64,000 bases of DNA from Chiloscyllium plagiosum (lineage: Eukaryota), in the NCBI RefSeq assembly GCF_004010195.1, contig NC_057752.1:8940766-9004765 (forward strand), read 5' to 3'. The notes under the pieces were generated by a model. The model was not told where the DNA came from. It was given only the letters and a program-made list of their open reading frames with translations, and made no database searches. A program made the position numbers and the translations under genes. The first letter of the stretch is position 1. Every line of letters starts with the position of its first letter. Below, piece after piece: positions 10,912 to 48,513 of the stretch.

Positions 10912-11287
10912 TGATTTGGAGAATCAATCTAAACATCAGGTCATAGACAGAGAACACAGGGGGCTAACACCTTCAACATATTGTCTAGCTATCACCATTG
11001 TTAACAGCTAACCCGAGAATGCAACTTTAAAAAAAAGGGTTTTGTGATTTACACATGAAAGAAGTGAAACTATCACTGTATTCTAAAAGATGAAAGGCTT
11101 AACAGACAATCAATTCTTCAATGTATAACTTCAGTTACATCACACTGCAAATTTTTGCTATAAATTCTGTGTGTTAGAGATTGAGCCTTCCACAATCACC
11201 TGATGAAGGAGCGTCGCTCCGAAAGCTAGTGTGCTTCCAATCAAACCTGTTGGACTATAACCTGGTGTTGTGTGATTTTTAACTTTG
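10912..11287 (+). mobile_element. Penelope-like element 3' fragment (family A) with short inverted 5' end
   Basis: TSD tacaaaatacaa (10900-10911 / 11288-11299); contains a hammerhead motif; same family at 43496-43706 and 49903-50022. Confidence 0.8.
11197..11231 (+). ncRNA. Minimal type-I hammerhead ribozyme motif (intact core)
   Basis: cac-CTGATGA-A-GGAGC-gtc-GCTCC-GAA-AGCT-A^-gtg: stem I cac/gtg, stem II GGAGC/GCTCC, palindromic AGCT in place of stem III. Confidence 0.75.
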
Positions 11288-11868
11288 TACAAAATACAAG
11301 TAAGCATTTATGGAAGACAGAATGACTTCTGCCTTGGTAAATGGACGACAGCATTGTAACAGTATGGTGGGGAAATTGCAGGTAATAATGTTCCCACATG
11401 TTTGCTACCATTGTCTTTGTGGGTGGTACTGTTTGTAGCTTGAAAGGTACTGTTGAAGTCATGTTGTGCTGTTGCATGTTTAATCAGTAAATGATTAATG
11501 TTTGAGAACAACCTTGACAGGTTGCTGCATAATTGGTGGCTAGATTATTAATGTTTAAGAACAGCTATCAACAAAGCAAATAGAAAGCTGAACTTTTCTA
11601 ACCCATACAATGGAGAATAATTCGAAGGAAGTCATGATCTAACCTTGGGAATGGTTTCCAACTGTAGTTACTAAGAGACACAGATAACTTCCCAGGCCTG
11701 CAAGTGATGCAGGAAAGGTTTTTTTTTTATTCTTTGCAACTGAGTTAGAAAGACCGAGATGTCGCGAAATTAAAAATTAGTTCAAGTTGATAGGAGGGAG
11801 AGGGTAAATTGAAAATGCAATGACTGCTTCCTGTATGATTCATCTGAATAAACCAGGGAGTAGATGAG

Positions 11869-12070
11869 GAGAAAGTGAGGACTGCAGATGCTGGAGATCA
11901 GAGTCGAGAATGTGGTGCTGGAAAAACACAGCAGGTCAGGCAGCATCTGAGGAGCAGGAGAATCGATGTTTTGGGCAAGAGCCCTGCATCAGGAATTTCT
12001 GAAACGTCGATTCTCCTGCTCCTCAGATGCTGCCTGACCTGCTGTGCTTTTGCAGCATCCCACTCTCGAG
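11869..12070. mobile_element. PLE-derived fold-back mini-element (family B)
   Basis: Inverted arms around a decayed hammerhead; TSD agggagtagatgag (11855-11868 / 12071-12084). Confidence 0.8.
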
Positions 12071-12224
12071 AGGGAGTAGATGAGTCGTACAGACCAGGAA
12101 ATTGCTAAATTTAACCTCTTTTTAGGAAAATCAGAGTCTGTTTCTTATCATATGATCCCCTTAGAATTAAGTGTGGGTCCAGTCTTGGGCTTGAATATGA
12201 CGTTTTTTCCTCTTTAGCGTAATG

Positions 12225-13750
12225 GAAACATAAGACCTGGAGTAGATTGTTCAGTCTATCAAGTCTACCCCGCTATTCAACTAAATTTGATTTTCTAGCT
12301 CAATGCCATTTTCTCACACTACCTCTGCATCCCTTCATGTCATTAGTTTCCAGAAACCTATTGATTTCTGTCTTGAACATGTTCAGTGATTGAACTTCCA
12401 CGGTCTCCTGGAACAGAGAATCCCAAAGATTCAACACCCTCTGAGTAAAGTCATTCCTCTTCATCTCAATCTCAGGAAAAAGTGTGGGCTTTTAAGACTA
12501 TGTCCATGGTTCTAGAGTTACCAGCCAGTGGAAACATCTTACCTACATCCACCCTGCCATGTCCTGGAAGAATTTTTTTAAGTTTCAATGAGATCACCTC
12601 TCATTGTTTGAAACTCCAGGGAATACAGATCCAGTTTCCTCAATCTCTGCTCATAAGAAAATGCTGCCCTCCAAGGGACTAATCTGGTGAACATGTGATG
12701 AATTCTCTCTATGGCAAGTGTATTCTTCCTTCGGACACCAAAACTGTACACAGTACTGTCTCACCACGGCTCTACACAAATGCAGCAAGACAACTTTATT
12801 TTTGTCCTCAAATCCCCTTGAACTGACTGCGAGCAGACTATTTGCTCTCCAAACTGTTTGCTACATCTGCATGCCAGCTTTCGTGACTATGAATAAGGAC
12901 ACCCAAGTCCCTTTGGTCATGCATATTCCCTAACTTCTCATCATTTAAGAAATATGCTGTCTTTTTGTTTTTTTTTCTATCAAAGTGGATAACTTTATTC
13001 CATCTGCCATGTTTTTGCCCATTTATACAGCCTGTCTAAGTCATTTTGAAGTCTCCATGCAGCCTTCTCACAACTTGCATTCCATTCCCACCGAGTTTGA
13101 TGTTACCTGCAAATGTGGAAATATTACAATTGATTCCCATAGCCAAGTCCTTTTGTAAATTGTGAACAGCTGAGGATCTAGTTCTGACTTTTGTGGTACC
13201 TCACGAGTAGTCTGCCATCCTAAAAATTATCCATTTATCCCTACTCTCTGTCTGTTGATCAATTCTCAACCCATACTAGCATAATCTCCCCAATCCTTGT
13301 GCTGTCGTATTGTTTACTTAGCCTCTGTGAGACTGTATCAAAAGCTTCCTGAAAATCCAAATGTACCACATCCACTGGTTTTCCCTTATCTATGCTAAAA
13401 CTAAGATCCTCAAAAAAGAATTGTCTGTTAAACATGACTTCCCTATCATAAATCCATGTTAACTCTACTCAATGTTTGCATTTTTGTTTAATTGTTTAGT
13501 TATCACATCATTTCTAAAATAGCTTGATGTCATCAGCAGGAAAATGTTATAATTCAACTGGTTTGTAGCTAACCATTCTCCCTCTTCCATTCTTAAATAG
13601 TGGCATTATATTAGCTACCTTCCAATCAGTAGAAAGTTTCCCAGAATATATAGAATTTCAAAAGATAGCCACCAATGCACCCACTATCTCTAAACTACTT
13701 CCTTCAATATTTTGGGATGAAGCTCATCTGGTCCAAGAAATTGATCAACT
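12225..13750 (-). mobile_element. Old degenerate CR1 RT fragment
   Basis: Reverse-strand remnants of DVVHLDFQEAFD, ISTFAGNIK and the CR1 3' UTR. Confidence 0.7.
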
Positions 13751-14267
13751 CTCGATCCAGCTCATTTTTCAAATTGAATATGATCATGAATGGTCATCAC
13801 AAAGTGTATGTGAAAAGAATGTCTCCTCTTGTGGGTCTGTCCACATCTAGGGGGTACTGTTTGAAAATTGGGGTTTTGCTCTTTTAGGACAGACGAGGAG
13901 AAATATTTACTCTTGGGGTTATGAGATATTGGAACTCCCTGCCTCAGAAGGTGGTGGAGGTGGGTCATTTTTAAGACACAAGCTGGTCGATTCCCTTGTC
14001 TAACAAGAATCTAAGGTTAATATAGATAGTTTCTGTTCTGAATTCCAACTTCCCATCTGAATAGCAATGAAGTTATTAAATGGCACAGCAGGCTTGAAGG
14101 GACAAAAAGTCTACATCTGCTATCTTGTATGTTCACGAGACAAAAGTCTCCCTTTTTATATAAGCTGGCTTGTAATAAACGCTACTGTTTTGGCCTTGGA
14201 GAGGCAGAGAGATATCTGACATGTCTGATGTTTCAATTTAACACCCATTTTCCATTGAAATTTTCAG

Positions 14268-14420
14268 TATTTCGAATACACATCTCGGTCTGAAATCCGC
14301 CACAACATCGGGAAGCAACTGTGTCTTCATGCTGTGTACGGCCCAGTTCGATTAGAGCTATGTAAATACAAAGGAAAGGATACAAGAGTGCCAGGAGAGG
14401 AACGCTGGGAAATTTTACAC
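14268..14420 (+). CDS. GALNT6: GALNT6-like penultimate coding exon (lectin beta repeat)
   Basis: ttttcag|TAT...CAC|gtaagt; 153 nt, phase 0/0; YFEYTSRSEIRHNIGKQLCLHAVYGPVRLELCKYKGKDTRVPGEERWEILH. Confidence 0.93.
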
Positions 14421-16232: not shown

Positions 16233-16321
16233 AGAAGAAGGGCTTATGCCCGAAACGTCGATTCTCCTGTTCCCTGGATGCTGCCTGACCTGCTGCGCTT
16301 TTCCAGCAACACATTTTCAGC
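16233..16321 (+). mobile_element. Young PLE family-B 3' fragment in the last GALNT6 intron
   Basis: TSD tatgttatctata (16220-16232 / 16322-16334); sequence matches the right arm of the 63606-63776 palindrome. Confidence 0.85.
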
Positions 16322-16560
16322 TATGTTATCTATAGTCTGATAGACCATCCCCTTAGTGTATCATCCTTTATTCATATCCAGACCTGTGACATCGAAAATA
16401 TTAATTTTAAAATACTACATATTCTGGACTTGACATTGTATTGCCAGATTCATTGGCTTATAAGCAATGAGCTTTATATAAAGGCGATAGCAAATCCCCA
16501 AACTGGGGAGACAGGTGGGGGTGAAGCACAGGTTATTAACTTGTACTTTTTTTTTCCCAG

Positions 16561-20823: not shown

Positions 20824-20974
20824 ACAAAAAAACTGAAATCACTACAGATGCTGGAAATCTGAAACAAAAAGCGTTCTGAAGGGTCACTGGATACGAAACG
20901 TTAACTCTAATTTCTCTCTACAGCTGCTGCCAGACCTGCTGAGATTCTCCAGCAATTTCTGTTTTTTTTCGATG
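20824..20974. mobile_element. PLE-derived mini-element (family C) with decayed hammerhead
   Basis: gttctgaa-gggtc-actg-gatac-gaaacgttaac; same family at about 33680-33815, 36160-36300, 47760-48250 and 62030-62125. Confidence 0.7.
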
Positions 20975-27998: not shown

Positions 27999-28288
27999 GT
28001 ATGAAATGTTTACTGTTTTTTTTCTTTCTGCAATAATGACATTTAACAACTAATAATTTAACAATATCTGCACTGTATGATTCTCTGAATTACTTGATTT
28101 AGAAGAGGAAGCCAATTCTGTCAGACAAATAGGAATCTGTGTGTCACAAGCTTATATCAATTAAAGAACTATTTCTTATATTTTTATGAAATAATTTTCA
28201 GATCTTTTTAAGTATTTTCTCAATGAACATGAAAGAAATATTTCAAAATTAAATGTGCTAGACTAATAATCCATTTTTTTTTAAACAG

Positions 28289-30645: not shown

Positions 30646-31366
30646 GTAAGTGCTTTTGGATTTATGCTTGAATATTATTCTATTATAGAAATTATAAGGA
30701 GATAATTTATCTTTCATTTGTATTGGAGATTGGCTCTTTAAATTGAGCTAATTGTGTTAGCTCGCTGGCAAAACATGAGCTTCATAAAAATGCTCAATTG
30801 AAGAAAAGCAACAGTATTTTGCCTGGATAAAATTCTTAAATTTATTACTCATCTGGGAATTGGAAAGAAACAAGAAAACAAAGCAAACAGGATCTTATTT
30901 TTAACATACTTCGTGTTGAACCAAAGTTGAGCAAAAGATTAAAATAAATAATTGCCAGTTGCTGCAATAGATTTCTACTTTCTCCTTTCCTCCCTATGAC
31001 TTTGCATCAAAATTAACCCTGGTTATAAGGGTCATAAATAAAATGATATTGAGGCAATGTTGATCATTTCACATCACAAAACTGCCCTATTTCAGACTAA
31101 CCAACATTCACAGGTCATCAATATGATCCAGAAATTCAGATGCAGATCCAGCAGCTGAACCCCAGCAAATGCCCGTTGATCTGTTTGTTGAATCAACACC
31201 AAGAGGTTGCAGGTTCAGGCAAGGGAGCTTAGGATAATGTATGAAGCTCAGAGAAAACAAGAATGACAAATTCAGAGTGAGATGATCAGAGAAAAATATA
31301 GACTAAACCAAGATAAATTGAAAAGAGGAAACATAGGATTCATTGGATGTTTTTTCTCTGATATAG

Positions 31367-31512
31367 ATGGTGGGGAAGTTAGTTCTACTCTTCAGCAGGT
31401 TCCCATTCGGATTGTGGACTACAAAACCTGTTCCAGACCTGACCTTTGGGGCTACTATGTCAATGACATCATGGTGTGTGCAGGCGGAGATGGTTTCGTC
31501 TCAGGCTGTCAG
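31367..31512 (+). CDS. CELA1: Elastase exon 6
   Basis: atatag|AT...CAG|gtaatg; [48 protein letters not shown]; 146 nt. Confidence 0.96.
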
Positions 31513-32104
31513 GTAATGGTGTCGGATGTTTTCCTTCCACAGGACAAAATAGTAATCTATAACAGTTTATATTAAGGTATACAGCCTTTTATAGACAATG
31601 CCAGAGGAAACTGCAGTAAATGTGAAATAAATGCTTGATCAGTACAACTGACTCACAGAACCCAGAGCTATATTGTCAGCTGGTTATGAGAATGCAATGG
31701 GGAAAACAGTAGTGAAAATGTCAACCAGCATTTTTGGATTTCCGATCATCATTCATTCACAAATCACAAATAAAAGTTGTAAGGAGATGATATGGTGAAA
31801 TTAATCTGTAGGCTGGCCGTTCACACCAAGAACCTGGATTTGAATCCAGCCCTGATCTACATGGAAAAGTTCTTCTTTCTGTGTGCCTGTTATAAAAGTG
31901 TAAATGAGAAAGACATTTGGGTGGTCTGAACTAAATGACCTGTCTCACTCAGACTACTGTGACAAACAAATGTTCAGTAGTACTCTTGTGGCTATTTTGA
32001 AGTTTATTGAAAGGCACATTAAGATAATTCAGGAATCTGGTTTTAACAACACCCATATCTACCAATCTAAAACACGAGACAAAAAAACTGACACACTTCA
32101 AAAT

Positions 32105-32740
32105 AAGGAGAAAGTGAGGACTGCAGATGCTGGAGATCATAGTCAAAAGGTGTGGTGCTAGAAAAGCACAGCAGGTCAGACAACATCCAAGGAGCAGGAG
32201 AGTTGACATTTCGGGCATAAGCTCTTAATGGCGGGGGGAGAGGGGGAGACAAGGGGACTGAGATAAATGGGAGGAAGGGGTGGGGCTGGGGGAAAGGTAG
32301 CTGGGAAGGCAATATGTAGATGAAGATGTGATAGATCGGAGCAGAGGCTGGAGCAGATAGGTGGGAAGGAAGATGGACAGGTAGGACAGTTCAAGAGGGC
32401 GGTGCCGAGTTGGAGAGTTGGATCTGGAATAAGGTGGGGGGAGGGGAGATGAGGAAACTGGTGAAATCGACATTGATGCCCTGGGGTTCAAGGCTCCCAA
32501 GGCAGAAGATGAGATGTTTCTCCTCCAGGCATTGGATGGCTTGGATTTGGTTGTGGAGGAGGCCCAGGACTTGCATGTCCTTGGAGGAGTGGAAGGGGGA
32601 GTTGAAGTGGTCGGCCACAAGGCGGTGGGGCTGTTGGGTGCGTGTGTCCCGGAAATGTTCCCTGAACCATTCCGCAAGTTGGCGTCCTGTCGCCCCAATG
32701 TAGAGGAGACCACATCGGGAGCAACAGACACAGTAGATAA
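32105..32740 (-). mobile_element. PLE family-B fragment with GIY-YIG C-terminal region, elastase intron 6
   Basis: YIGATGRQLAEWFREH; ADHFNSPFHS..MQVLGL..LEEKHLIFCLGSLEPQGINVDF; ends in the family-B terminal repeat, linking that repeat to a PLE ORF. Confidence 0.85.
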
Positions 32741-33459
32741 AACTACTGATAGCTCATAAACAGCTCTGAATATAGACCCCTGTGACCAATGCTAGTGCTT
32801 TACTGAAATTGGATTAATTAAACGTCATTCTGCTGCACAGGATTTGGTCATTTCCCAATATTTTCAGAATCACTTTATGAAATTTGATTTGCCTTTTGCA
32901 GAAAACCAAAACCTAATGTAGGCATCTCTGACAGATGAAAAGTTCAAATGAGGGTGCAGTGGAACATGAACTTGCAATGTAAACAGCAGGTATAAATGCA
33001 AGGTTCACTTGTATGTATTGGAGGGTGTGATGGGGGAGCCATTAGTATACAAAAAAGGACTGTTTGGAATGACAGACCTGGAAATTTCTGATGGGAAATG
33101 TGAGAACTGAAGATGGAGATTTATTTCCTTGGCTCTTCCTGATAAATACTATATTTTAAAATATTTCTTTGGCGCATTTTCCAGCATTTTAAAGACTCTA
33201 TAGTTCTGCTATTGCAGCCAAAAAATAGTGAATTCAGTATACTAGATCCCACAGTGAGTCCAGCAATAATGCAATTTAAATTGAAAAAAGATGTGCTACA
33301 ATATTTTCAGAAATGCACAGTAAAGGCATTCTAGGACCACCTGGGGTGTGACACAACAGACAACCTGAGCTGAATTTTCTATAGGCAAAAGCTAGGCGCA
33401 GGGAGTCTCTATCTCTATTGCCTATCAACACTGGAGCACAAGTAGGCCATTCAGCCCAG

Positions 33460-35030
33460 TGATGTCACCACAAAGATGTGGCTGCATGGGGATCAGGACT
33501 GGCAACTAAATATCTGACGATACACGTCCTATTGAAGAAACAGGCAGCGGGGTGCAGTTGCCTTGTTTATAAGATATGAAATTAAAATCAATAGCAAAAA
33601 ATGATAAAGAGTTGGAAGGCATAGAATCTGTGTGGGTAGGGTTGAGGAATCGCAAAGGAAAAAAGACCCTGATGGGAAGTTATGAGGAAGGGTCAGTCAA
33701 CCCGAAATATTAGCTCCGATTTCTCTCCACAGATGCTGCCAGATCAGCTGAGCTTTTCCAGCAATTTCTGTTTTTGTTTCTGATTTACAGCATCCACAGT
33801 TCTTTTGGTTTTTAGACTCTGATGGGAGTTGTGCACAGGCCTCCTAACTGTAGTCAGGATGTAGGGCAGAAAATCAATCAGGAAATAGTAAAGACATGTG
33901 AGAAAGGTACTGTTACAATAATCATAAGGGACTTCAATATTTCGGTGGACTGAGAATATCAGTTTGGTCGTGGATCCCAAGAAAAAGAATGTATATGAGA
34001 TGGTTTTCTGGAGCAGCTTGTGGTAGAGCCCATTAGGGAACAGGCAATTCTGGATTGGTAATGTGTAATGTGGCAGACTTGATTAGGGAGCTAAAGGTGA
34101 AGGAACCCCTTGGGGGCAGTGACCATGATATGTTGGAATTCACCCTGCAATTTGAGAGGAAGAAATTGTAATCAGATGCAATGACTACAAGGGCATGAGG
34201 GAGCACTGGCCAGAGTTGATTGGAAGGGGAACCTCACCGGAAAGACAGTGGAACTCATTGTTGCAGAAGGCTGTGGAGGCCAAGTCATTGAGTGATAGGT
34301 TCTTTTTTCTTAATCCAATAATGGGATGAGGGTGTCACTGGCTAGGCTATCCCTAATTGCCCAGAGGGCAGTTAAGAGTCATCTGCTGTGGGAGCCAAAT
34401 TTTTTTCCCAACAATCAATAATGGTTTCACGGTCATCATTAATTCAGATTTTTATTGAATTCAAATTCCACCATCTGCCAAGGCAGGAATTTAACCAAAC
34501 ATTACCTGAGTCTCTGGATTAACAGTCCAGTAAAAATACCACTAGGCCATTGTCTCTTGATTAGTAAGTGGATTAAAGTTTATGGGGAGAAGGAAGGAGA
34601 ATGGGGTTGAGAAACATATCCGCCATGATCAAATGCTGGAGCAGACTCCATGTGCTGAATGGCCTAATTCTCTCCTATATCTTATGGTCTTACGGTCATC
34701 GAGTCTGCTCTGCCATTCAATGAAGTCATGTCTGATCTGATAATCCTCAATTTCACTTTCCTATCTTTTCCATATAACCCTTGATTCCCTTAATGAATAA
34801 ACATCTGTCTATCTCATCCTGAATATCCTTAACAGGAGTTAGAGACAGATGTGTGAAGAAGTGTTTTGCCTGAAACGCTGACTTCTCCACCTCCTGATGC
34901 TGCCTGACTTGCTGTGTTCTTCCAGCCTCCTGTTTGTCTACTTTGAATGTAATGATCCAGCCTCAACAGCCCTCTGTGGTAAAGAATTCCACAGATTCAC
35001 TACTCTCTGAGAGAAGAAATTCCTTCTCAT
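33460..35030. mobile_element. Composite of CR1 APE fragment (+), CR1 3' ends (+ and -), a tRNA-SINE (34310-34550) and two PLE mini-inserts
   Basis: IIRDFN.., AILDW, GSDH remnants; opposed CR1 3' UTRs at about 34560-34690 and 34695-35030. Confidence 0.65.
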
Positions 35031-36503
35031 CTCCCTACTCTATGGACCTCTAGAGTTTCTCATATGTATATTGTGATAAAAGTAAAAGCTACATAAGATT
35101 CTAGGAGCTTTGGGGCTCACACATATTCCTCTTGCCAGGATAAAGACTGCAACGGCACTCTGGAACTCTGAGAGTCTATGTGACTGAAACTAAATCCTAC
35201 TCATCAATCTTAGGAAAGGAGAGCTTGGTACTGTTCTCCTTGCTAATCTGCAATAACCTCCCCTCTCCCAACCATCCCCACTGCCTCTGTAGTGCAGAAG
35301 TCAAACACTGACAGTGGTATCTGATGCAATGTCTTCTGGAATGTACATTTTATATGACTGTCTCACAATTTGCATCATTTTCTCCAGTATTTTTGCATTA
35401 GTCCCTCCAGTATACAAGTTTGTTGCATATCCTTGCTTGATTTGATTTTATAATTTTCAGTATCTAGTACTCTGTATATATACAGTTCAATTAACATGCA
35501 TAATTTCTATGGTGGGTGATGGTAGATTATCCCATCTAAAGAATTGAAGCACTTGCATACCTTTGGGTAACAGACTTCAACGCACGTTAACACAGGTGCT
35601 GTCCACACAGAATTGCCAAATAGGCAAGCACAAAATTTACACAGCTGCATAAATACTATACGGTGTGCAGTGATATTTCTGCTGCATTCAAGGGGATGGC
35701 CTTGGGGCAATGACTCGCAGGCATGTTATGTGTCGGTAAGCGCTAATATGTAGCCTAAATAAATAAAAGCTCTCAATGTGAATTGCTGATGGTGGCCTGT
35801 TGGGAAACTTGCTGCACATTTTTTTTAAAAACAACTGTCGCTAACTCTGCCTTGCTCAAAAAGCTGGTTCAACTGTTCAACTGTTAAAATACTGGGACAA
35901 TGGTTCCTTTGCCAATACTTGTTTGATGCATCAAATGGCTTGAGATACAGTGCAAGAATCATCTGGTCGCATTGCTGCTCATACGCACAAGCTCCATATA
36001 ACTATAAATACAAAAATATATTTTTGGAATACTCAGGCGCTATCTGAGCACAACAAAAACGGTATATTAAGCACTGAGCAAAAGCGGATAAACAAACAGA
36101 AGCCTGCACATCCTGACTAATGCTAATCTGTATTGTTGCTAAACCTGAACTCAACAATGAAAACAAACAATGCTGAAAATACTCAGTAGGTGGCAACATC
36201 TATTGCGAGAGAAACATTTCAGGGCTGTAACTCTGTCTGAATATCATCATTGTAAAGATCATTGACCTGAAAAGTTAACACTGTTGCATTCTCCACAGAT
36301 TGAGGGAGTAGTTCAAGAGAAGCTTCTCTCAGGAAATGAAATGGGCAGGATACAACTTCTGTCCGGATAAATTACACATACCATGTGGGTTCGATGATTC
36401 ATTGACTCAAGCTGTACCATGCTTTCTCTCCCTATATTTGAACAGCGAGAATAGAATTTAGAAGAATAGAATGGCAACGGAATTTCTCTTCTTTCTCACA
36501 CAG

Positions 36504-36653
36504 GGAGATTCTGGTGGTCCTCTGAACTGTGAGAAAGATGGGAAGTTCTATGTTCATGGAGTGACCAGCTTCATCTATGCAGGAGGATGCAGGTTCTACA
36601 TGAAACCAACAGTCTGGACCCGTGTCTCAGCTGAGATAGATTGGATCAATGAG
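36504..36653 (+). CDS. CELA1: Elastase exon 7 (catalytic Ser195)
   Basis: acacag|GGA...GAG|gtgagt; [50 protein letters not shown]; 150 nt. Confidence 0.97.
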
Positions 36654-37440
36654 GTGAGTTAAGATTTTTAATTCTTGTAATAATATATCAACATACAACA
36701 ATACTCTCTAAATATATAGATTTGCTTTAAAAATTATCCAATTGAGATTTAAGTCACCAATATCTATCACTATTCAGTTAAAATCAGTCGATTCTTTTTT
36801 ATCTCCATTACACTTTAAAACTATTTGGACCACACAGCAATGCTAGGCAGGAGTGAATTAGCAAACCCAGACAATTTTCTGGAGGCTAGACTCACTTCAA
36901 TGGACCACTATCTCGAACAGTTCAACAATGGGGAGCACTTAATAGTGTGCAGTCCTAATGACAGTGCCTGCCACATTACTATTTATAAAAAAGCTTACGG
37001 TCACACAGAGATCAATAAACAGCCAGAGTGGGGATACAAGAAAGAGTGTTAAGGCCAGGGCAATGGGCTAATTTACAAATGGGCTGTAGTAGTAGGGAAC
37101 CATAATGGATGGTATTCTGATAATGAGATCAAATGGGTAAAATCAGCATAATTTAAACTTATTTCATGAATTTCTAAAAGTCACATAAAATTTATAGGTT
37201 AGAGACTGTTTCCAAAAGTGAAGCAGGCCTGATAATTCAAAACTGACAAGTCAGAAGCAAATGGGTAGAGGGCCTGCAGAAATTGTATTTAAATTAATCA
37301 CATTGCACATATCATTAAAGCCAATGTGAGGCAAAGTTATGAGTGGCAGTCAATTTAATCAAACACAGTTGAAAGGACAAAGGTTGCAGAAACAATGAAC
37401 ATGTCTTTAATAATCACGTAAATCATGTTTTATTTTTCAG

Positions 37441-37531: not shown

Positions 37532-38310
37532 GTACATTTAAATCAAAATGCTTCTCAAAATGAATGTTTTTTCTGGCTTATTCTGTGGACTAGTTGCAAC
37601 AGGTGTGGGTGGGATTATCGGGCTTCAGATGTTGTGCTGCACTGTGCTGACATTATGCAATCTTAATTTAAGTTCTATATACAGTTGTTCTGTACTCTTG
37701 GAACATAGCACATGGTATGCCTGAAACATGCATGGGTAGGGGTTGCAGGCTATTCAGCAACAGCTCTTAAAAGACTGCTGATCTTTAAAAGGGAACTGGC
37801 TGCAAATTTAAAACATGGCAAAAGCAAAGCACAAAGGCAGTACAATACTATTCAAAAATGGTGCTTTATAAGTACTAATTATAAGGACAAATCTTTTTGG
37901 TGAAAAAAGATATTCTCAGTCAAGAATCCTGCCAGGGTAGTCTGGATGAAGATCACTAAGTGAGTCACTGCTATCTGAACTGTGGCCCAACACAAGGTAG
38001 TATTTGGTATATGCAAGGCTGCCAAAGTTTGCTGACAATTTGCAAAGAAAAAATAATTGTCTTCCAAGCATGTTAATAAAATTTCACTGTAAGCATCACC
38101 AAGAAAATTCTCATTTCTGACATCTTAAGAGCTTAATCGGCAAAAGATGTGCTGAGCCTACATCCTGAAAGTCAGTGTGGGCGTCTCACCACTTTTTCGG
38201 GCAGCACACAAGACACCCACAAACTCTAAAGATTCCACTCACAAGAAAGTGTTGCCTCTGAACACTTGGGTCACACACACATTATGTTTCCTTGATTTAA
38301 GAATATCAAC

Positions 38311-39620
38311 TATTTGAGTTTTTTGTGAAGATTTGTAGCTCAGGTTGAGGTTCAGGTTGTAAGTTTGCTTGCTGAGCCAAAAGATTTGTTCTCAGATGTT
38401 GCGTCACCATGCTAGGTAACATCATCAGTGAGCCTTTGTTGAAGTGCTGGTGTACTGTCCCGCTTTCTATTTATGTATCTGGTCTGTTGTGGTGGGTGAT
38501 ATCACTTCCAGTTCTTTTTCTGAGATTTTGGTAAATGGGGTCCAAATCATTGTGTTTATTGATGGTGTTCCAGTTTGAATGCCAGGCCTCTAGGAATTCC
38601 CATGCATGTCTTTGTTTAGCCTGTCCCAGGATGGATGTATTGTCCCAGTCGAACTGGTGTCCCTCATTGTCTGTGTGTAAGGATACTAGTGATAGTTGAT
38701 CATGTCTTTTGATGACTAGTTGGTACTTGTATATGCTGGTGACTAGTTTCCTGCTAGTCTCTCCAATGTAATGTTTGATGCAGTCCTGTGGGGTATTTTG
38801 TACTTGACATTCATTCTACGGGTTGTTGGTACAGGGTCCTTTAGATTCATCAAGAATTGCTTCAGTGTGTTGGTAGGTTTGTGGGCTACCATGATGCCGA
38901 GGGGCTGGAGTAGTCTGGTTGTCATCTCCGTGATGCCTTTAATGTATGATAGTGTGGCTAGAGTCTCTAGGAGAAAGTGAGGACTGCAGATGCTGGAGAT
39001 CAGAGCTGAAAAATGTGTTGCTGGAAAAGCGCAGCAGGTCAGGCAGCATCCAAGGAGCAGGAGAATCGATGTTTAGGTGTGTTGTGTCTTCCTGTTTAGG
39101 TTAGTTATGTAGGAATTGGCAGACTGTGCTTATCAGGCACCCGATGTTCTTGAATACGTTGTATAGGTGTTTTTCTTTGGCATCACGTAGTTCCTGGGTG
39201 CTGCAGTGTGTTGTAGCTCGTTTAAATAACGTCCTGATGCAGCTCCATTTGTGGATGTTGGGGTGATTGCTCCTGTAGTTGAGTACCTGGTCAGTGTGTG
39301 TCACTTTCCTGTCGATGCTGGTCTGCAGCTCTCCATTGGCTTTTCATTCTACTGTGACATCTAAGAAGGGGAGTCTATGCATACAGGCCTGGCATTCAAA
39401 CCGGAACTCCATCAATAAACACATGGATTTGGACCTTATTTACCAATCTCTCAGAAAAAGAACTGGAAGTGATATCACCCACCACAACAGACCAGATACA
39501 TGAATAAAAAGCAGGACAGTACACCAGCGCTTCAACAAAGGCTCACTGATGATGTTACCTAGCATGGTGGCAAAACGTCTGAGAATAAATCTTCCAGCTC
39601 AGCGAGCAAACGTACAACCT
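38311..39620 (-). mobile_element. Penelope-like element (family D), 5'-truncated, with ~240-bp inverted pseudo-LTRs
   Basis: LPFLDVTVE, THTDQVLNYRSNHP, NVKYKIP..HYIGETSRKL; 38353-38590 is the reverse complement of about 39385-39620; TSD gaatatcaac (38301-38310 / 39621-39630); family-B insert at 38969-39072. Confidence 0.9.
39542..39583 (+). ncRNA. Minimal hammerhead motif in the family-D pseudo-LTR (core G12 mutated); mirror copy at 38391-38432 (-)
   Basis: ctca-CTGATGA-T-GTTACC-tagcat-GGTGGC-aAA-ACGT-C^-tgag; the mirror copy has GGTGAC-GcA-ACaT-C; the two together reconstruct GAAACGTC. Confidence 0.7.
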
Positions 39621-42399
39621 GAATATCAACGATATTAACAATAAACACAGTAAATGCTGGAGAAACTCAGCAGATATATAAATGTTATTGTTTATATGAT
39701 TAATATTCTAACGATATTAACACATTGATTTTTCAGGGGTTCTATATTTCAAATGTGATGTCAGATATCCAACTATGCAGGTGCAAAAGAGTCCACTTTA
39801 CTATTTGAAGAAGAACAAAGAGTGCCCTTTGTGTCTTGTCCAACATTCTCCTTCAACCAAATGCCCCAAAAACAGATTAACTGGTCATTTACTCATTTGC
39901 TGGAGCTGGATTCTTGCTTGGTGCATATTGGTTGTTGTTCTTGCTTACAAAAGAACATTGTTTACTACAAAAGTAATCCATTGCCTGTGAAGTGTTTTGG
40001 GTTATCTGGAGGGCATGACTGTCACATAAGAACAGGTTCTTCTTATCCTAGCATCTGTCCCTGTTCCATCTGCTTACAGGAGAATGATGCACTTAACCAG
40101 CACGGCTGAATGAAGATAAGAGGAGATTAACAAAGGTGCAAATCAGTGACTTAGCTTTAACGTCACAGTATTACAATTATATCAGGACATTTTGCATGCA
40201 TGCATTCACTCAAAGGCACGCAATGCATCAAAAATCATAATGTTGCTTTGCCATGTAAAGCTATATTTTACTCGAGTTTTACTGATATCTGATTGCCAAC
40301 ACTCATAAATATGCTTTTGTTCTTTTCCTCTAGGTGTTCAAGAGGTGTTAGTGCCAGAATACAATGGTCAACCTTAACCAAGCACCTCACAATACTTTTA
40401 GTTTATAGTGGTAATCAGTAGATTCAAGATTGAATTTAAAATAATAGGAACTATGATGGATCACAGAAAGGAACACATTTAGGTACATGGCATGAATGAA
40501 GAATTGCAACTGTAGGTGGAATTTGAGGCAGCACCAACTGCCATCCAAAGGGGTCAGCTTGAGGACCCCTGCAACTGTTCAGCCTTGGTATTTGGACATC
40601 TTGGGGCCTGTCTACAAATAAATTTCTGCAGTTAGGAACAGCATTCTACTGCATATTTCTAAGACGTACTGGCTAATCAACTGCTCAAGCTGCTCTAATT
40701 ACAGTTAGAAACAAGTCTCTATGACAATAGCACATTATTTCTCCTTATCCGTCTCAAATTCTATGCAGCCTTTGGAACAGTTGACCTGACCATTTTCCTC
40801 CAAAAACACCTCATCATTTTATTGTTCCAGAGAACTACCCCTACCTATGCAGCTGCATTTATACTTATACATCGTAACCATGACAACAAAGCAATGGCTT
40901 CCCTTCCCAATGTTTAGTGGAGGAAACTGGAAGATCAGAAGTATTGCGCACCATGACCACAAGCTCTTTTTCTTGCTAATAACTCGCACACACTCAGGCT
41001 GTACCAGACTGTTTGCAATTTCAGCCTTCTATTCGCCCACCAGGGAGATGAGATGGCTCAGTTGATAGCATCTATGCCTAAGATGTTCTAGACTTAAGTC
41101 CACTCCAGGATTTGTTGGCCATGGAAGGTTTGCTCATGGCATGACTCAACAGATTAATAAACAGCCAGCTAATCCTTCCAACACTTCTCCCTCATAGTGA
41201 AAATGAGTGCAGGATATGAAGTAAACAATTTTAGATTAGATTAGATTGCCTACAGAGGAAACAGGCCATTTGGCCCAACAAGTCCACATTGACCCTCCAA
41301 AGAGTAACCCACCCAGATCCATTCCAGTACCCTATATTTACCTTTGACTAATGCACCTAACACTATGGACAATTTCGCATGACCAATTCACCTGAGCTGC
41401 ACATCTTTGGATTGTGGGAGGAAACAGGAATAAACCCACGCAGACATGGGGAGAATATGCAAACTCCACACAGACAGTCGTCCGAGGGTGGAATCAAACG
41501 CAGGTCCCTGGCGCTGTGAGGTAGCAGTGCTAACCACTGAGCCACCATGCTGCCCACTAACCCCCTTAGCTGGGCTTTCAACCCTATATCCTCTTCATCA
41601 CAAAGACCATCTAATTCCATTTGCACAACGGTACAATCCATTCCCTATATTCTATCCTACACTGCAGCCAGCTAATCCATCACTCAGCCCTGATGATCTA
41701 GATTGGATTGTGGACCCTCAATGCCTTAGCTAAAAAATCATCTTCTCGTGCTTAAATAAATAAAGTTAACATACAGCTCCACCAAACAAGGTGATTTAGC
41801 CTTTGGATCTGGAGTGCTAGGGTGATTAAGTCATTCAGCAATCATACACAGCTTGGGCTGTGAGTTCTGTGCACATTCTTGCATACCCAAACCTAGAGAA
41901 GAATATAACTTGCCTTTGAACTAGATGGATTCCTGAAATGAAGGTCATCCTAAAAGAAGGGCTTGAGTAGAGTGGGTCTGTTTCTGGCATTTAGAAGAAT
42001 TAATGGTGAACTCTAGAAAGCTGCTGAATGGGATGACAGGATAGATGCTGAGATACTGTTTCCCCCTGGCTGGAGAGTCCAGAATTAGGGGGTCACAGTC
42101 TCAGAGTAAGTGGTTGGTCATTTTGGACTCTGCCGAAGAGAAAGTTCTTCACTCAAGAGGGTTGTAGATCTCTGGAATTCGGTATCCCAGGGAAGAATGA
42201 TCTTACCCTTTCCTAGCTCTGCAACACCCCCTTCCCTAAAAGCCCAACACGCTCCCCACTCATAAAACTCTCTCTAACTCCGATATTAGCCTCCTGTGAA
42301 AGCCCCCTTCTTCCCAGTGTCACACATCACCCAGACAAGCCTGTGGCAAACAAACAATAACAACAGGCTGGATTATATTATACATGGGAATATAGTAAA

Positions 42400-43930
42400 T
42401 CAGAGCAGAAGTATGCCATCCTTTCCCTTGAGCTTGCTCGGGTGTTCAATAAGACCAGTGTTGATATTCAACCAATTTCCTATCCGATCCCATATCTCTT
42501 GATTCCCTTAAAGTTTAAAAGTCAAGCAATCTCAACTTTGAATATATTAATGATTGTGTATTCGCTCTTCCACGAGATACCAAATTCCAAACATTTTCTC
42601 TTTACCAGAGTCCAAAATGACCAACCGCTTATTCTGAGACTGACTCCAAGTTTGAGACTCTCGAGCCAGGGGGAAACAGTGTCTCAGCATCTATCTTGTC
42701 AGCTCACTCAGAAGCTTTCAAGAGTTTACCACTCATTCTTTTAAATGCCAGAAACAGGCCCACTCTACTCAATCTCTCCTTTTAAATGACCCTCATTTCA
42801 GGAATCCTTCTCATGCATCTCCACTACACCCCTTCAAAGGCAAGTTATATTCTTCTTTAGGTATGGGGATGCAAAACTGTGCACAGTACTCCCTGTTTGG
42901 TCTTGACCAAGCCATGTATGATTGCTGAATGACTTAATTACACCAGCACTCCAATTCCAAAAGACCAATAACCTTTCCTTTCCTAATTGTTTGGTGTAGC
43001 TGTATGTTAACTTTGAGTCTGGTGTACAGGAACTTCCGAATCCCTCTACACGCCAACTTTTACTAGCTTCTCACCATTTAAAATCTATCCAGCCTTTTCA
43101 TTCTTCCTTTCAAAGTGAATAACCTCATGTTTTCCCACATTAAACTTCATCTGCAATCTTCTTGCCCACTTACTGTCTAAATTCACTTATGGACCATTTG
43201 TGTCCTCCTCATAGTTTTCCTGCCTAGTTTTGTATCATCAGAAAAGTTACTGTATATACTCAAGTAATAGTCAAAGTATTTTGACTACTTTTTAAGGTTA
43301 AATTTATAGAATTGACTATTACATGGATACTACTGTGGAGGGGCTGAAATTCATGCCCGCCAAAATTCATACCATATCATTAGCAAGGCCAACTGAAGTC
43401 TCAACCAATAAGGGAAAAAAAAAATCATGGATCATGGTCATTCTGAAAACCCGGAGTGAAGTGCAATGGCTGGCGCACTGACTCATAAATGTTGAAAATC
43501 ACACAACACCTGGGTATAGTCCAACAGATTTAATTGGAAACACGAGCTTTCAGAGTGCTGCTCTTTCATCAGGTCATCAGGACAACCACCTGATGAAGGA
43601 GCAGCGCTCCAATAGCTAGTGTTTCCAAATAAACCTGTTGGACTATAACCTGGTGTCATGCGATCATTAACTTTGTACACCCCAGTCCAACACCAGCACC
43701 TCCAAATCATAAATGTTGATCTGTTATCTGTGAAGAACTAGGGTCGACTTTTACATGAAAATTCCAGATTTTTGGGCCAAAAATAGGGGGCTGACTTTGA
43801 CATGAGATCAACTATTACTTAGGTATATATGGTAGATATATGAAGGGACTAAGAATAATATAAGTCATTAATATGGATTATAAATAACTGAGGATCCAGC
43901 ATGGATTCTTGCCACATCCATTAGTTAACA
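42400..43930 (-). mobile_element. Old CR1 RT/3' fragment interrupted by a MITE
   Basis: Reverse-strand CR1 remnants continuous across the TA-flanked MITE (aaagtTA...TAgatata). Confidence 0.65.
43250..43832. mobile_element. Tc1/mariner-type MITE carrying a PLE fold-back insert
   Basis: TIRs ctgtatatactcaagtaatagt / actattacttaggtatatatgg, TA flanks; insert 43496-43706 with TSD tcataaatgttga. Confidence 0.8.
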
Positions 43931-46900
43931 GCTATGGAAGGGTTTTAGGACCCTGAAACAACCAAATAATGATGTCATCCAACAGCACATAAATAGCACA
44001 GTGTGGGCAGAGTGAAGATGGAAGTTCAATAGAGTGTAGATAACACATTCTCTTAATAATGCAAGATTCAGACCTCTTAATAAGGTCTGAACTTGGTATA
44101 TCTTAGATTACCATGCATGATTGTATTTCGGGTTAAAATAGAGTCTAAGAAGCTTAGACTTAAAAACAACTTTTAATCTTCCCTTCTCCTTGACCCCTCT
44201 GTCTTGAATTCAAACTCTTAGCTGTGGTCCTAAAACCACAAAACAAAAGATGGTGGCAGCAATACACCACAATGCCTAAAACATTGTAGAGTAGTAAAGA
44301 TGAAGAAACAAATCCAAAATCATCTAGAGAAAAGAACTCAACAAAATCAATTTTCCAGAAAGTAATTAGTACAGCTTTAAGACCAAAAAGCAGCCAGCAC
44401 AGCAACAAAGCTGAACAGATGCTGTGAAGGAACAATCTCTGAACAAAAACCCCGACAGAAAAATCACCAAGACATTCAAAGATAGGCTTTTACAGCCAAT
44501 AAAAGGGGTAACAGACATTTAAGGAAAAAGAACAAACAATGAGAGCAATAAAAACCAATAGCAGGCAAGAGTATATGTCCAGATAGAACCCCTACGAGAA
44601 CAGTTTGATTACCAGACATCCAGAGCCTATTTGATCCCTCATAGAAAAACAACAAAAAACTAGGCTGGGAGGCAGAGTTAAGATTTCTGGCACTTCTTTT
44701 ATCAGGTTTAGACTATTTATCTATTCAGAAAATTTATCAACAAGCAAATTAAGAAAATCTGTCAGTAACAGACTAAGACACACCAATCAGTTGAAAAGAA
44801 ATCAAGAATAAGAAAATATCAAAGAAATAAGAATTGTTTTTGGAATACAAAGTTTCAAAGCCCAAACAATGAAGTTTGTGAAACCTTTATTATTTTGATG
44901 CTTTGGCAAGAAGTGCAAATTTTCTTCAGTAACTACAAATTTTAATTGTTTTCAAAAAAGACATTGGAGTCAAACAAAAAGAACATGAATCTGATCATCA
45001 CAAAGTTGGCACAAAAATATGTCAGATGCAGAAAAATTGACACAAATGATATTGTGGCATCCACCCAGTTGATTAGCTCAGTTGATTAGATGGCTAGCAC
45101 TGTAGTTCAGAATAATATCAATATTGCAACTTCAATTCCTGTTGCAGCTAAGATAGACCTGAGGCCGGTCTCCTCACCCTGTCCTTAAGAATGGAAGACA
45201 ATGGGAAACCATAATTGACAGAAACTATCAAGGAAAACAACTTGACATGTAGATAATGAGCTCAGGACCTACCTTCAGGCAATGTACGCATGGAATGAAA
45301 ATGAATTTCTCTCATACTTTTTTTTCACTAACATTAATTACTTTGGCCAATTAGTTCAGGTGGCTAGATGGGTAGCGTGTGATTATGAATACTGCCAACA
45401 ACAAGGGTTCAATATCTGTTCTGACTGAGGTAGGCTTGGGACCTGCCACCTCATCTTGCCACAAGCTTGTTGCGGAATGGTGCCTTCAAGCGATATAGTT
45501 AATTGTCTCTCTCTAATAGATATTTATAGAAGGGTATTTGATGAACTAATCGTCCTTGATGAAATCTGCTGTTCTTGAAGCATTTTTTGCAAAAGTAGAA
45601 TCTCATGAGCAATGCAGATCAGCCCTTATGTCAATATTACTTTTGTATGCATTCAGGGGAAAGGTTACAATCTCTCAGATGTTCCTGACCTTATTTTGCT
45701 TTTTTTCCGTATTGACTTTTAATAGGAGCTAATTTATGGATGAGAATATAAAATCAGAGTGGAGTCATTGACTGATTATTTTAATTGCACCGGAATAGTT
45801 TTAATACATATTTAATTAAAACTATATTTTTGTGATACAGTAACATTTTTTTCTCTATTGTTATTATTTACTTATATGTAACTTTCTAATGAACAAGCAA
45901 GGTACAAAAATTAATTTCTGTATCAATAATGCAATGAAAGTGAAGTCCCTCATGGATTATGGCTAATTACCTAACTACCTGCTAAATGGTTTCAGTTCTT
46001 CACTTTCCTTAGACTCTTTGTTCCCCACTGTTTCTAGTATGTTCTTGATGAAGGGCTTATGCCCAAAACATCAACACTCCTGCTCCTCGGATGCTGCCTG
46101 ACCCACTGTGCTTTTCCAGCACCACACCCTCGACTCTGATCTCCAGCATCTGCAGTCCTCACTTTCTCCTGGTATGTTTTTTGTGTCTTCTACTGTGAAG
46201 AGAGGTACTATGTAAGATTTTTAATGTAAAATACATATGTATGTTTAATAATATTTTATAACACAGCCTTTATGTGTCTTGTATTTACTCTCACTATTCT
46301 TTTCCTTTGTGCATACTTATGGAAATTCTTACAACATGTCTTTATATTTCTTTTGCTGGTTTCTTTTCTATTCTATTTTGTCCCACAATCAATTTTTTGG
46401 TCATTCTTTGCTGGTTTCTAAAGCTCTTCTAATTCTCAGGCTTTCAGCTCTTATGGGCAATATATAAGTCTGTTCTTTTAATCTAATATTATTCTTAACC
46501 TTTTTAGTTAACTCCAAATGGATCCCTTTTCCCATGAGCCATTATTTCTTAACAGAATACACATTTGAAGTTCTATGAAACTTCTTTAAATATATTTCAT
46601 AAATTTACATTGTTAACTATTGTTGTCGAGTCTATGTGAAGATTAAAGTGCCCTATGATTATTGTATTGCCTTTGTTACAAGACTTTTCTTAATTAGGAA
46701 GTGGTGTAGGCTGGTACAATTGCAACATTTAAAAGGCATCTGGAAGGTTTAGAGGGATATGGGCCAAGTGCTGGCAAATAGAACCAGATTAGGTTGGAAT
46801 ATCTGGTCGGCATGGACGAGTTGGACTGAAGGATCTGTTTCTGTGCTGTATATCTCTATGACTCTAATTCATATAATCCCTACAGTGTGGAAGCTGGCCA

Positions 46901-47522
46901 TTCGGCTAATCAAACACCAAACCTCTGAAGAGCATCCCACTCAGACCCACCCCCAACCCTATCTCTGCATTTCCCATGACTAATCCACCGAGCCTGAACA
47001 GCCCTAGAAACTACAGGCAATTTAGCATGGCCAATCACCGAACCTGCACATCTTTGGACTGTGGGAAGAAACCAACGCAGACACAGGGAGAATGTGCAAA
47101 CTCCACAAAGACAGTCGTTCGAGGCTGGAATTGAACTCTGGTCCCCGGTGCTGTGAGGCAGCAGTGCTAACCACTGAATCATCATGCCACCCTGTATACC
47201 TAGTGTTAGGAAACAGTGTAAGCTGGAGTGTCTTGCTACTGAGGATCAAACACAACCAGGATTCTTGCTCATTACTTAATGACCTCAGTTGGGTAGTGCA
47301 CAAACATGGGCCTGAGATGACAACAGGTTATCTTTATTGTGAAACTTTCAGTCAGATACTATGGTAAACATTCACTTGGCTCATTATCAAAACTTGCCAT
47401 TTTGGGGTGTTAGCAGAGGGCAATTTCCCTCATGCATACCATAGCAAGAGAAAGCAGCTGCTGAGGAAAAAGGAAGTAAGTAGAAAAATTACAATTTTAA
47501 AATACAATCAAAATTAGTACAT

Positions 47523-47541
47523 TGGCTCCACCTAGTGTCCA
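47523..47541 (-). promoter_or_regulatory. Candidate CTCF site
   Basis: TGGACACTAGGTGGAGCCA resembles the CTCF core CCAC(C/T)AG(G/A)(G/T)GGCGC with two deviations; lies in apparently unique sequence. Confidence 0.4.
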
Positions 47542-48110
47542 ATATGCAGAGTGCTTTCATTTTCCTGCATTGAGCTATTTAAGTCACCATAGTCCTATTG
47601 GACCAAAGGGCTGCTCTCTCATTAGAGAGAAATGCTTGGTAGTAGTTTCACCTGAGGGTCACCACACCTCAGGCAAGTGAAGAGGTTGAGAAGTAGAGTC
47701 CTACATGATCACCTCAGCTGGTGCAGGAATTGAAGCCAAGTTGTTGACAACACACTGCATGGCAAATCAGCAACCCATACAAAACAGGACCTGAAATTTT
47801 CAGAATGTGAACACCCTCCTTCATGTTCATTACCCTCCCCTCACACCCCTAGGTCCTGTTTTGTATCCGCTGCTCCCAGCACATCCAACCCATTTTCAAC
47901 CATTTACACATTTTGTTAGTGCTTTACCTTATTATTAGCATTGATTCTTATCGTTAGCATTTATCTGTCTCTTCCCTAATCATCAGCTATCTCTTTGTTT
48001 GCCTATTCCTTTTCTCTTTCTCTGGACTCCCGTTTCCATGTACTTTATTCATCCAGCCCACCCCCCACCCAATAATCTGAATAAATACCACACTTTCTCT
48101 GCTATTTTCG

Positions 48111-48146
48111 ATTCTGATGAAAGGTCATTAGACTTGAAACATTAAC
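48111..48146 (+). ncRNA. Minimal hammerhead motif, family C
   Basis: att-CTGATGA-A-AGGTC-atta-GACTT-GAA-ACaT-T^-aac. Confidence 0.55.
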
Positions 48147-48477
48147 TCTGTTTTTCTCTCTAAAAATACTACTAGACCTGCTGAGTTTCTACCGCATTTT
48201 CTGTTTTTGTTTTAGATTTCCAGCATCCACATTTCTTTGCTATTATCTTAATATTCATTTTTGTACTTGCAGAGGTTTCTGAGTTAAAAGCTTATGTGGG
48301 TAGAAAATGGGAGGTGGCATGACAGCACTATTGTGATATGTGTATGTGTGTGTAGATGGATCATGGATCATGGTGCCATATTTGCATTGAGAACATACAC
48401 TTCATTTCAGCAAGGTTGTGATGTAATGATTTAGACAAACAGGATACTGCAAGCCCAGCAGTATCAGAAGGTGGAGA

Positions 48478-48513
48478 AGTCAATGTTTCGGGTATTAACC
48501 CTTCTTCAGGACT
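48478..48513 (-). ncRNA. Minimal hammerhead motif, family-B variant
   Basis: Minus strand agtc-CTGAAGA-A-GGGT-taat-ACCC-GAA-ACaT-T^-gact; stems I and II fully paired. Confidence 0.65.

Follow-up and report, generated by a model that had tools for sequence, protein, structure and literature searches.

The window analysed here is a stretch of 64,000 nucleotides from Chiloscyllium plagiosum (contig NC_057752.1), and it holds hammerhead motifs of five families, A to E (Table 1). The first-pass annotation had described the copy at 11197 as having an intact core, and indeed 11197-11231 is the single window match to the full core pattern and the only complete motif there, with a predicted cut site after A11228. 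The insertion that contains it has an 11-nt target duplication on its two sides (10900-10910 and 11288-11298) and lies in sense between two consecutive plus-strand lectin-domain exons, 2779-2880 (Ricin_B_lectin profile positions 5-38, E=9e-07) and 14268-14420 (positions 39-78, E=0.016). These exons bear out the earlier placement in sense within an intron, but the host gene name given with it, GALNT6, is a putative one that goes by the motif and a neighbouring elastase gene.

Table 1. Hammerhead motifs, element copies and associated features in the window
Feature	Position	Strand	Remarks
Intron of GalNAc-transferase-like host gene	2881..14267	+	contains the 11197 motif in sense
5'-truncated family A PLE insertion	10911..11291	+	12-nt inverted tail piece (10911-10922) joined to forward pLTR (10920-11291)
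TATAAA	11159-11164	+	box position in family A long copies
Putative family A start base	11192	+	A11192; 8 nt before core; from TATA position and junction counts
Family A minimal hammerhead	11197..11231	+	intact core; helix I 3 bp; helix II 5 bp; AGCT palindrome
Family A poly(A) signal position	11240..11260	+	ATTAAA or AATAAA in family; ATCAAA in 11197 copy
Poly(A) addition sites	11257 and 11260	+	from family-level reads
Family B head-to-head pair	11867..12067	.	cores broken; same intron as 11197
Further family B relics	16235-16325, 46042-46170	+	
Further family E relics	20878-20969, 33682-33778, 62025-62116		
Family B copy	32124..32753	-	core lost; upstream GIY-YIG-like frame, Pfam E=0.0034 (under cut-off)
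Family C (Poseidon-like) insertion	38311..39620	.	truncated minus-strand copy and inverted pLTR; 10-nt duplication at 38301-38310 and 39621-39630
Family C hammerhead, decayed	38391..38432	-	GCA for GAA; ACAT, palindrome lost
GIY-YIG-like sequence of family C insertion	38474-38815		
Family B piece	38987-39077		nested within family C insertion
Family C hammerhead, decayed	39542..39583	+	AAA in place of GAA; no catalytic G12
Family A head-to-head pair, decayed	43488..43710	.	
Family E hammerhead and tail, decayed	48111..48211	+	ACAT; helix I third pair broken
Family D hammerhead	48478..48513	-	core and both helices intact; tetramer decayed to ACAT
Family A relic	49904-50028	-	
Young family B head-to-head pair	63601..63808	.	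both arms cut inside hammerhead

Motif class and element of origin

[quoted passage not shown] Genome-wide, the core pattern, whose tetramer position also permitted ACCT and AGGT, matches 74,704 + 74,591 = 149,295 times, compared with 30 + 23 = 53 for the reversed control. The palindromic tetramer is ACGT or AGCT in 98 of the first 100 matches, these being the first on the largest contigs and not random draws; among 369 core-matching sites it is ACGT in 168 and AGCT in 91, and most of the others are CpG decay products. The core nucleotides of the class (C3-A9, G12-A14, A15.1-U16.1 and H17) are all present at 11197 and at the 149,295 genome matches, but not at 39542 and 38391. All motifs cited by the first-pass annotation are found at their coordinates with the helix II arms it gave; 11197-11231 is complete, but those at 39542, 38391, 48478 and 48111 are each defective, so that most of the examples are broken. 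Likewise the family B pattern (GGGC/GCCC; ACGT) is right in its helix II arms, but no family B copy within the window has a complete core. A search with Rfam covariance models had been proposed as a check. It finds no hammerhead in the window at E<=1, and Rfam is unsuitable for this purpose because the motifs have no helix III. What Rfam reports as miRNA at 63644-63737 and at 11942-12030 is in both cases a family B head-to-head pair.

The assignment to PLE pLTRs also holds, as in each of the five families GIY-YIG sequence precedes the motif at a fixed distance. For most paired hits the distance is about 660-690 nt in A, 250-275 nt in B and 130-150 nt in C, and it is 180-330 nt in D and E. A B-type segment matches the Pfam GIY-YIG family (E=2.4e-05), upstream of a family A endonuclease there is an RVT_1 match (E=5e-06, under cut-off), and at one locus (L165) reverse transcriptase and GIY-YIG pieces follow in order. 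At another (L226), two same-strand family C hammerheads 2.2 kb apart flank an open reading frame with an assembly gap, an arrangement of pLTR, ORF and pLTR. Full-length elements were looked for in 16 fetched candidate regions, where the long open frames proved to be N assembly gaps and no intact ORF was seen. Both the 11197 unit and the family C unit show 5' truncation, an inverted partner and a target duplication. More widely, 65 of 150 copies in family B and 32 of 87 in family A have an inverted partner.

Around the motif, B, D, E1 and E2 are 63-78% identical to one another, so the families come down to about three lineages (A; B/D/E; C). The CX2-5CxxC linker, a mark of Neptune whose absence marks Poseidon (PMC8557442), is found in family A and missing from family C. 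Families A and B look Neptune-like. Helix II has 4-5 bp in A, B, D and E. In family C the reading frame starts at the ATG that opens helix II, so that helix II doubles as the start of the ORF.

This kind of motif is already known: Cervera and de la Pena described min-HHRs in the pLTRs of metazoan PLEs in 2014 (PMC4209133), and the genome studied here carries about 150,000 copies. The metazoan motifs share with ours the CUGANGA core, the extra base before G10.1, the G10.1-C11.1 pair, a palindromic tetramer where helix III would be, covarying families, several to a genome, and copies that are mostly solo and truncated. Our 149,295 matches compare with about 4,000 in the coelacanth and about 9,000 in Xenopus, counted with different descriptors. 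In the portions of that paper's text and supplement covered here no shark is named and no start-site or cap analysis appears, and among titles and abstract openings of the freely accessible literature we found nothing on these motifs in sharks nor on their start site, poly(A) or cap.

We find it very improbable that these short units belong to the non-LTR retrozymes, which would have multiplied by way of circular RNA cut by the ribozyme. Retrozymes described by Li, Clavereau and Pollet (2026, 10.64898/2026.07.22.740005) are likewise PLE-derived hammerhead repeats, average 363 bp in one chondrichthyan genome and so come close to the 372 bp of the 11197 unit, and there are direct repeats at some of our loci. 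However, the 372 bp result from truncation, as relatives extend upstream into pLTR and GIY-YIG sequence, and 5' ends are not enriched at the cut site. Retrozymes are defined by tandem, non-coding hammerhead units, whereas the window copies are dispersed PLE ends, solo or head-to-head, and continuous with coding sequence.

Covariation, decay and the intronic copy

In an alignment of 13 hand-picked copies, 91.5% of 130 cells are paired compared with 62.3% after shuffling, and 7 of 10 helix pairs show two-sided change, with slid controls at 19-39%. The 13 were kept from 17 rows; the family A rows, which are shifted by one column, and two decayed rows were left out. In the 369 sites, selected without regard to pairing, pairs 1-3 of helix I and 1-4 of helix II exceed all 1000 shuffles, and pair 4 of helix I does not. 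These counts share ancestry and differ from an R-scape test. The extra base before the G10.1-C11.1 pair is present along with the compensatory helix change, and the commonest family B variants have a U-U mismatch in helix I. The annotation's compensatory change is thus borne out between subfamilies, but not across "unrelated families", given the relatedness of B, D and E.

Genomic copies decay neutrally, and the catalytic G behaves as any CpG. G12 has changed in 16 of 96 copies of family B and 13 of 56 of family A, and neighbouring non-catalytic CpG bases are altered in 17 and 15 of 96 (B) and 11 of 56 (A). Selection is therefore likely to have acted on the source elements and not on the dispersed copies. 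The CUGA box is more often mutated (7.8% vs 3.6% in B, 9.1% vs 4.7% in A), an excess that we do not read as selection against activity, since alignments leave the element at the very junction in which this box sits. The first 1.0 Mb has 291 copies, divided 142 and 149 between the strands. In seven genes covering 1.4 Mb there are 58 matches to the core, 36 sense and 22 antisense, so sense intronic copies show no depletion.

Does the 11197 copy then cut or regulate the pre-mRNA of its host GalNAc-transferase gene, as had been suggested? Its intact core lies in sense in an 11.4-kb intron, and the copy is young, with up to 99% identity to relatives. Against this, it is one of 11,845 equally intact family A motifs in the genome, its intron holds no second intact sense copy of the family, and sense copies are not depleted. 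Predicted folding is unfavourable: the helix I probability is at most 0.03 in five contexts, and a dimer with swapped helix II (-30.3 kcal/mol) is favoured over the double hammerhead (-16.3). A lone min-HHR was also left uncleaved in PMC4209133. Family A RNA in one run, a 3'-biased library of which about 2% was read, is mostly sense and crosses the cut site, and its depth is similar before this site (716, at 11196) and close to it (903, at 11241). These reads are family-level and not specific to 11197, whose unique intron flanks have almost no reads in the same run; their poly(A) begins some 30 nt beyond the cut site, and no cut ends were seen among them. Cutting of the host transcript is thus unsupported and we hold it to be highly unlikely; dispersed copies such as 11197 are likely to be inert inside host genes.

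Where short copies begin

The new lead here is that short copies of families A and B tend to begin just before the motif, often with an extra G. The position where their 5' ends cluster is the front of helix I, not the cut site. The per-base stop rate at -6..+8 is 0.077 in B and 0.032 in A, against 0.006-0.012 and 0.003-0.016 elsewhere. Ends at -6..-1 are found in 49 of 150 B copies, and at the cut site (+28..+31) the corresponding counts are 5 of 150 for B and 2 of 87 for A; family C has no pile-up (2 of 28 at -6..-1). The ends lie about 30 nt behind a TATA-like box. Of 57 long family A copies 39 have it at -38, and B, D and E carry one near -35, although in B and D the box (TTTATC) is a weak TATA match and the search motif was written after seeing it.

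In family A the start position was predicted from the TATA box and then tested on the junction counts. A non-templated base is found at -9 in 3,293 copies and at -11 in 707; some old family A subfamilies may score as truncated because of diverged upstream sequence. A hand count of the first 100 junctions, again the first on the largest contigs, gives G67/T23/A10 at -9 and G27/A35/C38 at -11 (Fisher test of G:A, p=6e-08). All five truncated family A junctions open to inspection have a G, two of them abutting the partner. In family B, which has 24,847 junctions at -5, there is a G excess of 66:34 in the first 100 junctions, taken in the same way, and no excess at clean non-inverted junctions (10 G, 9 A). 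A G can come from an inverted partner next to the junction. For L1 and SVA an untemplated G has been attributed to the cap (PMC3287187), and the pile-up and the G together are likely to mark a capped transcription start.

The same pile-up could instead reflect stalling of the reverse transcriptase at a folded or protein-bound hammerhead, ATT microhomology to the target, or the geometry of inverted junctions, all of which would leave the PLE origin untouched. The anole endonuclease prefers ATT, and since the B start base falls on ATT, microhomology contributes to the B ends; however, the ATT at +29 draws only 5 ends, and family A has no ATT at -8 and yet shows the G excess at its TATA-predicted boundary. 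An inverted partner accompanies 25 of the 49 B ends, but the 24 partner-free copies end within the same 6 nt. Were the stop structural, it should fall on the 3' edge of the fold, the side that the enzyme would reach first. The clean B junctions, together with the lack of any accumulation of read starts at the predicted start in the same 3'-biased RNA run, speak for such causes, which we consider unlikely overall. A splice acceptor at helix I, suggested by AG in D and E, was rejected, as B has no AG and no common upstream exon was seen by eye.

Proposed role and comparison with known elements

If the pile-up is a capped transcription start, it follows that the uncut RNA would be the insertion template. 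We think it probable that the PLE min-HHRs are selected in source elements, inert when dispersed, and placed at the head of this capped, uncut template RNA. A TATA/initiator promoter would set the start of the element RNA ahead of the core, by 8 nt in A and by 4 nt in B and probably in D and E, and the hammerhead would fill its first 37 (A) or 32 nt. The reverse transcriptase may begin just downstream, at the internal start site that PLEs are known to use, and run along the uncut RNA as far as the cap; this would account for the very many short copies with intact cores. Cutting would depend on a second copy that provides helix III and probably also on the protein of the element; it would remove the cap from the element's own RNA and could serve as a late off-switch or processing step not required for insertion.

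A broader reading, on which our judgement is evenly balanced, is that Neptune-like PLEs have built the hammerhead on the initiator, so that it heads the capped RNA. The pLTR would then resemble a retroviral U3-R with the ribozyme as R, the genomic copies, tens of thousands in number, would be a natural 5'-RACE record with capped uncut RNA as the in vivo template, and the ribozyme would act as a self-decapping switch. The poly(A) site just behind the hammerhead in family A forms part of the U3-R-like reading.

The role of the PLE hammerhead is still open (PMC8557442, PMC11167929). The finding as first written, intronic copy included, is ordinary. If the start-site reading is true, the 5' end of PLE RNA is fixed, cutting is predicted to remove a capped leader of 32-37 nt, and it is explained how about 150,000 core-intact motifs are carried without harm.

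Comparison can be made with PAc, a Poseidon element from the green anole (Frangieh et al. 2024, PMC11167929). Its frame also starts at the helix II ATG, like that of family C, its hammerhead cuts only with protein and is dispensable for insertion in vitro, and its reverse transcription starts internally. Uncut RNA serves as its template and no reads end at the cut site, in agreement with the 5' ends and RNA described here. PAc was tested in vitro, whereas our families are known from sequence and reads, and the cap-G footprint is seen in families A and B, which look Neptune-like, unlike the Poseidon PAc. The Penelope of D. virilis and the Adineta elements (PMC2377424, PMC3846280) likewise have a promoter inside the pLTR, an inverted 5'-truncated partner, an optional tail and target duplications. 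A TATA box and initiator are noted in an Adineta pLTR, as we infer here, whereas the D. virilis promoter is TATA-less and an intron separates its start from the hammerhead; here the putative start lies 0-5 nt before helix I.

Hammerhead motifs and their lineages

The motifs cited by the first-pass annotation are present in the window at the places it gave, and 11197-11231 (+) is intact, with all core bases and the palindrome, while the other cited copies are incomplete (see table). A strict motif scan of the 64-kb window returned 11200 (+) and 48509 (-); a loose scan gave 11 sites, 6 of which score at least 7, against 0.1 per shuffle. No complete family B copy was found in the 64-kb window, and the Rfam search that the annotation had proposed gave no hammerhead at E<=1 there. 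A decayed family C2 relic, absent from the annotation's list, was also observed.

Features of the window
Feature	Position	Strand	State or support
Lectin-domain exons, consecutive	2779-2880 and 14268-14420	+	
LINE-type reverse transcriptase/endonuclease fragments	5321-7382 and 57096-57698	-	Pfam RVT_1, Exo_endo_phos_2
Trypsin-family protease exons	28262-36659	+	Pfam Trypsin E=6e-10 and 5e-09
Family C hammerhead	38391		A13 and palindrome lost
Family C hammerhead	39542		G12 lost
Family E hammerhead	48111		reads ACAT
Family D hammerhead	48478		reads ACAT
Broken frames, LTR-retrotransposon gag/pol-like by eye	50375-52450	-	one frame tested, no Pfam match
Decayed family C2 hammerhead relic	63233-63285	+	
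Head-to-head PLE ends	11867-12067, 43488-43710, 63601-63808		near-perfect hairpins

These motifs belong to the class described in 2014 by Cervera and de la Pena (PMC4209133). Our chief new point is the start-site lead described below. A literature search, with most subscription journals and repeat databases outside it, found nothing on these families or on such a footprint; a 2026 non-LTR retrozyme preprint (10.64898/2026.07.22.740005) includes one chondrichthyan.

An origin in Penelope-like elements (PLEs) is indicated by three distinct GIY-YIG segments upstream of the A, B and C motifs, each at a family-specific distance (survey of 1.0 Mb of genome, the window and 59 loci), and by related segments upstream of D and E. 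One family A locus carries RT-like and then endonuclease-like frames in order, and at another locus (L226) two family C motifs on the same strand, 2.2 kb apart, flank an ORF with an assembly gap. In the 11197 insertion, as is known for PLEs, a forward copy truncated at its 5' end is joined to an inverted piece of the tail (12 nt), and the target is duplicated over 11 nt; the family C unit 38311-39620 has a 10-nt duplication. Family A resembles Neptune elements in its CX4CxxC linker (PMC8557442), which family C lacks, and family C resembles the anole Poseidon element in that its frame opens at the ATG in helix II (PMC11167929). The families had been described as unrelated, but B, D, E1 and E2 are 63-78% identical around the motif, which suggests about three lineages rather than five unrelated families.

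The proposed compensatory change in the helices is borne out. At 369 sites, picked on the core alone yet partly from loci chosen by intact patterns and with kinship ignored, helix I pairs 1-3 and helix II pairs 1-4 exceed all 1000 shuffles in pairing; helix I pair 4 shows no such excess. Among 13 hand-picked copies, with misaligned family A omitted and kinship again ignored, 91.5% of cells are paired against 62.3% when shuffled, and 7 of 10 helix pairs changed on both sides. The family D helix I 3' arm is an exact complement in 12/20 loci, though the pattern did not require it. The most frequent B variants carry a U-U mismatch in helix I, with predicted helix I pairing <=0.02 (e.g. L074:3730-3765 (-), outside the window), while B1 retains 4 pairs. 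Weaker family B ribozymes may be those that spread best.

The 5' boundary of short copies

With core base C3 as 0, 5' ends were counted in copies whose identity to a long natural copy is 88% or more. They fall at -6..-1 in 49/150 B copies (most often at -4, where helix I begins) and at -13..-1 in 27/87 A copies; only 5/150 B and 2/87 A copies end at the cut site (+28..+31). A TATA-like box stands at -38 in 39/57 long copies of family A and around -35 in families B, D and E, about 30 nt ahead of A(-8) and A(-4). The sequence around A(-4) in B, D and E1 fits the initiator consensus, YYANWYY.

A(-8) was set as the predicted family A start before junctions were counted. A non-templated base was found at -9 in 3,293 family A copies against 707 at -11. 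By hand counts of the first 100 matches listed for each, its composition is G67/T23/A10 at -9 and G27/A35/C38 at -11 (G:A contrast, p=6e-08). Of 24,847 such family B copies, the first 100 listed gave 66 G and 34 A. PMC3287187 attributes untemplated G at full-length 5' ends of L1 and SVA to the cap.

The pile-up and its G excess might instead arise without a capped start site: ATT microhomology contributes to the B peak, the B/D box is a weak TATA match, and partner-free family B junctions (10 G, 9 A) lack the excess. All five inspectable family A junctions have G, yet two abut an inverted partner copy. The B cluster persists in 24/85 partner-free copies. The most likely reading is still that a promoter in the PLE terminal repeat drives a putatively capped RNA beginning at the front of the hammerhead. 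The enzyme of the element would copy this RNA, uncut, as far as the cap and so yield short copies whose cores are intact, frequently in a head-to-head arrangement. Cleavage would require a partner copy, probably also protein, and would decap the element's own RNA. The anole enzyme starts internally just downstream, with no ribozyme cut needed (PMC11167929).

Family C shows no 5'-end cluster (2/28). Among its copies in the 1.4-Mb sample, 4/28 ends lie at -80..-85, and the C2 TATA-like box near -53 is incompatible with these as a single start site. The 11197 copy retains the TATA box and start base (11159-11192), so it could be a weak sense promoter within its intron.

Genomic copies and host transcripts

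The sense-intronic placement of 11197 holds, since consecutive lectin-domain exons on the same strand enclose it in an 11.4-kb intron, of a gene we take to be GALNT6. The suggestion that it cuts this pre-mRNA fares poorly. In a model limited to secondary structure, helix I is predicted to form with a probability of <=0.03, and a helix-II-swapped dimer is favoured over the double hammerhead by 14 kcal/mol. Fully intact family A motifs like 11197 occur 11,845 times in the genome. In seven genes whose orientation was set by clustered CUB-domain exons, 36 core matches are sense and 22 antisense (sense share 0.48-0.74, p=0.09), which excludes strong depletion of sense copies in these genes and is compatible with a small one. 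Over the first 1.0 Mb the count for all copies is 142 sense to 149 antisense.

The pattern CTGAWGAWG-N8-18-CGAAASSTH occurs 149,295 times in the genome (3.56 Gb) and its reversed control 53 times; the density of the pattern, 42 per Mb, is equal in the 1.4-Mb sample. The whole core is retained in 31/96 B and 27/56 A copies. G12 sits in a CpG and is changed in 16/96 B and 13/56 A copies, the rate of adjacent non-catalytic CpG bases. Dispersed genomic copies are not under selection.

About 2% of one poly(A) single-cell run with the same species label gave 4,389 reads aligned to 10700-12300, about 9:1 sense at the motif under the usual mate convention. These derive from family A at large, as do their 3' ends; the unique flanks of the 11197 copy have almost no reads, and a second RNA run gave no aligned reads. 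In the 2% sample of the first run no break was seen at the cut site and no pile-up of read starts or ends was reported. Non-templated poly(A) begins at 11257 (274 reads) and 11260 (341 reads), 12-15 nt past the family A ATTAAA/AATAAA; ATTAAA stands at +40 in 45/57 long copies. In family A a functional poly(A) signal lies 12 nt past the cut site; in the window copy (11240-11260) it is mutated to ATCAAA. Sense copies of family A in introns might terminate host transcripts prematurely, which is a more probable effect on the host than cleavage by the ribozyme.

Other features of the window

The protease exons, presumably elastase-like, sit downstream of the GalNAc-transferase-like gene. Two of the three head-to-head hairpins score in Rfam as false miRNA precursors. 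Among young A and B copies, about 40% are paired with an inverted partner in this way, and such head-to-head copies could supply much double-stranded RNA.
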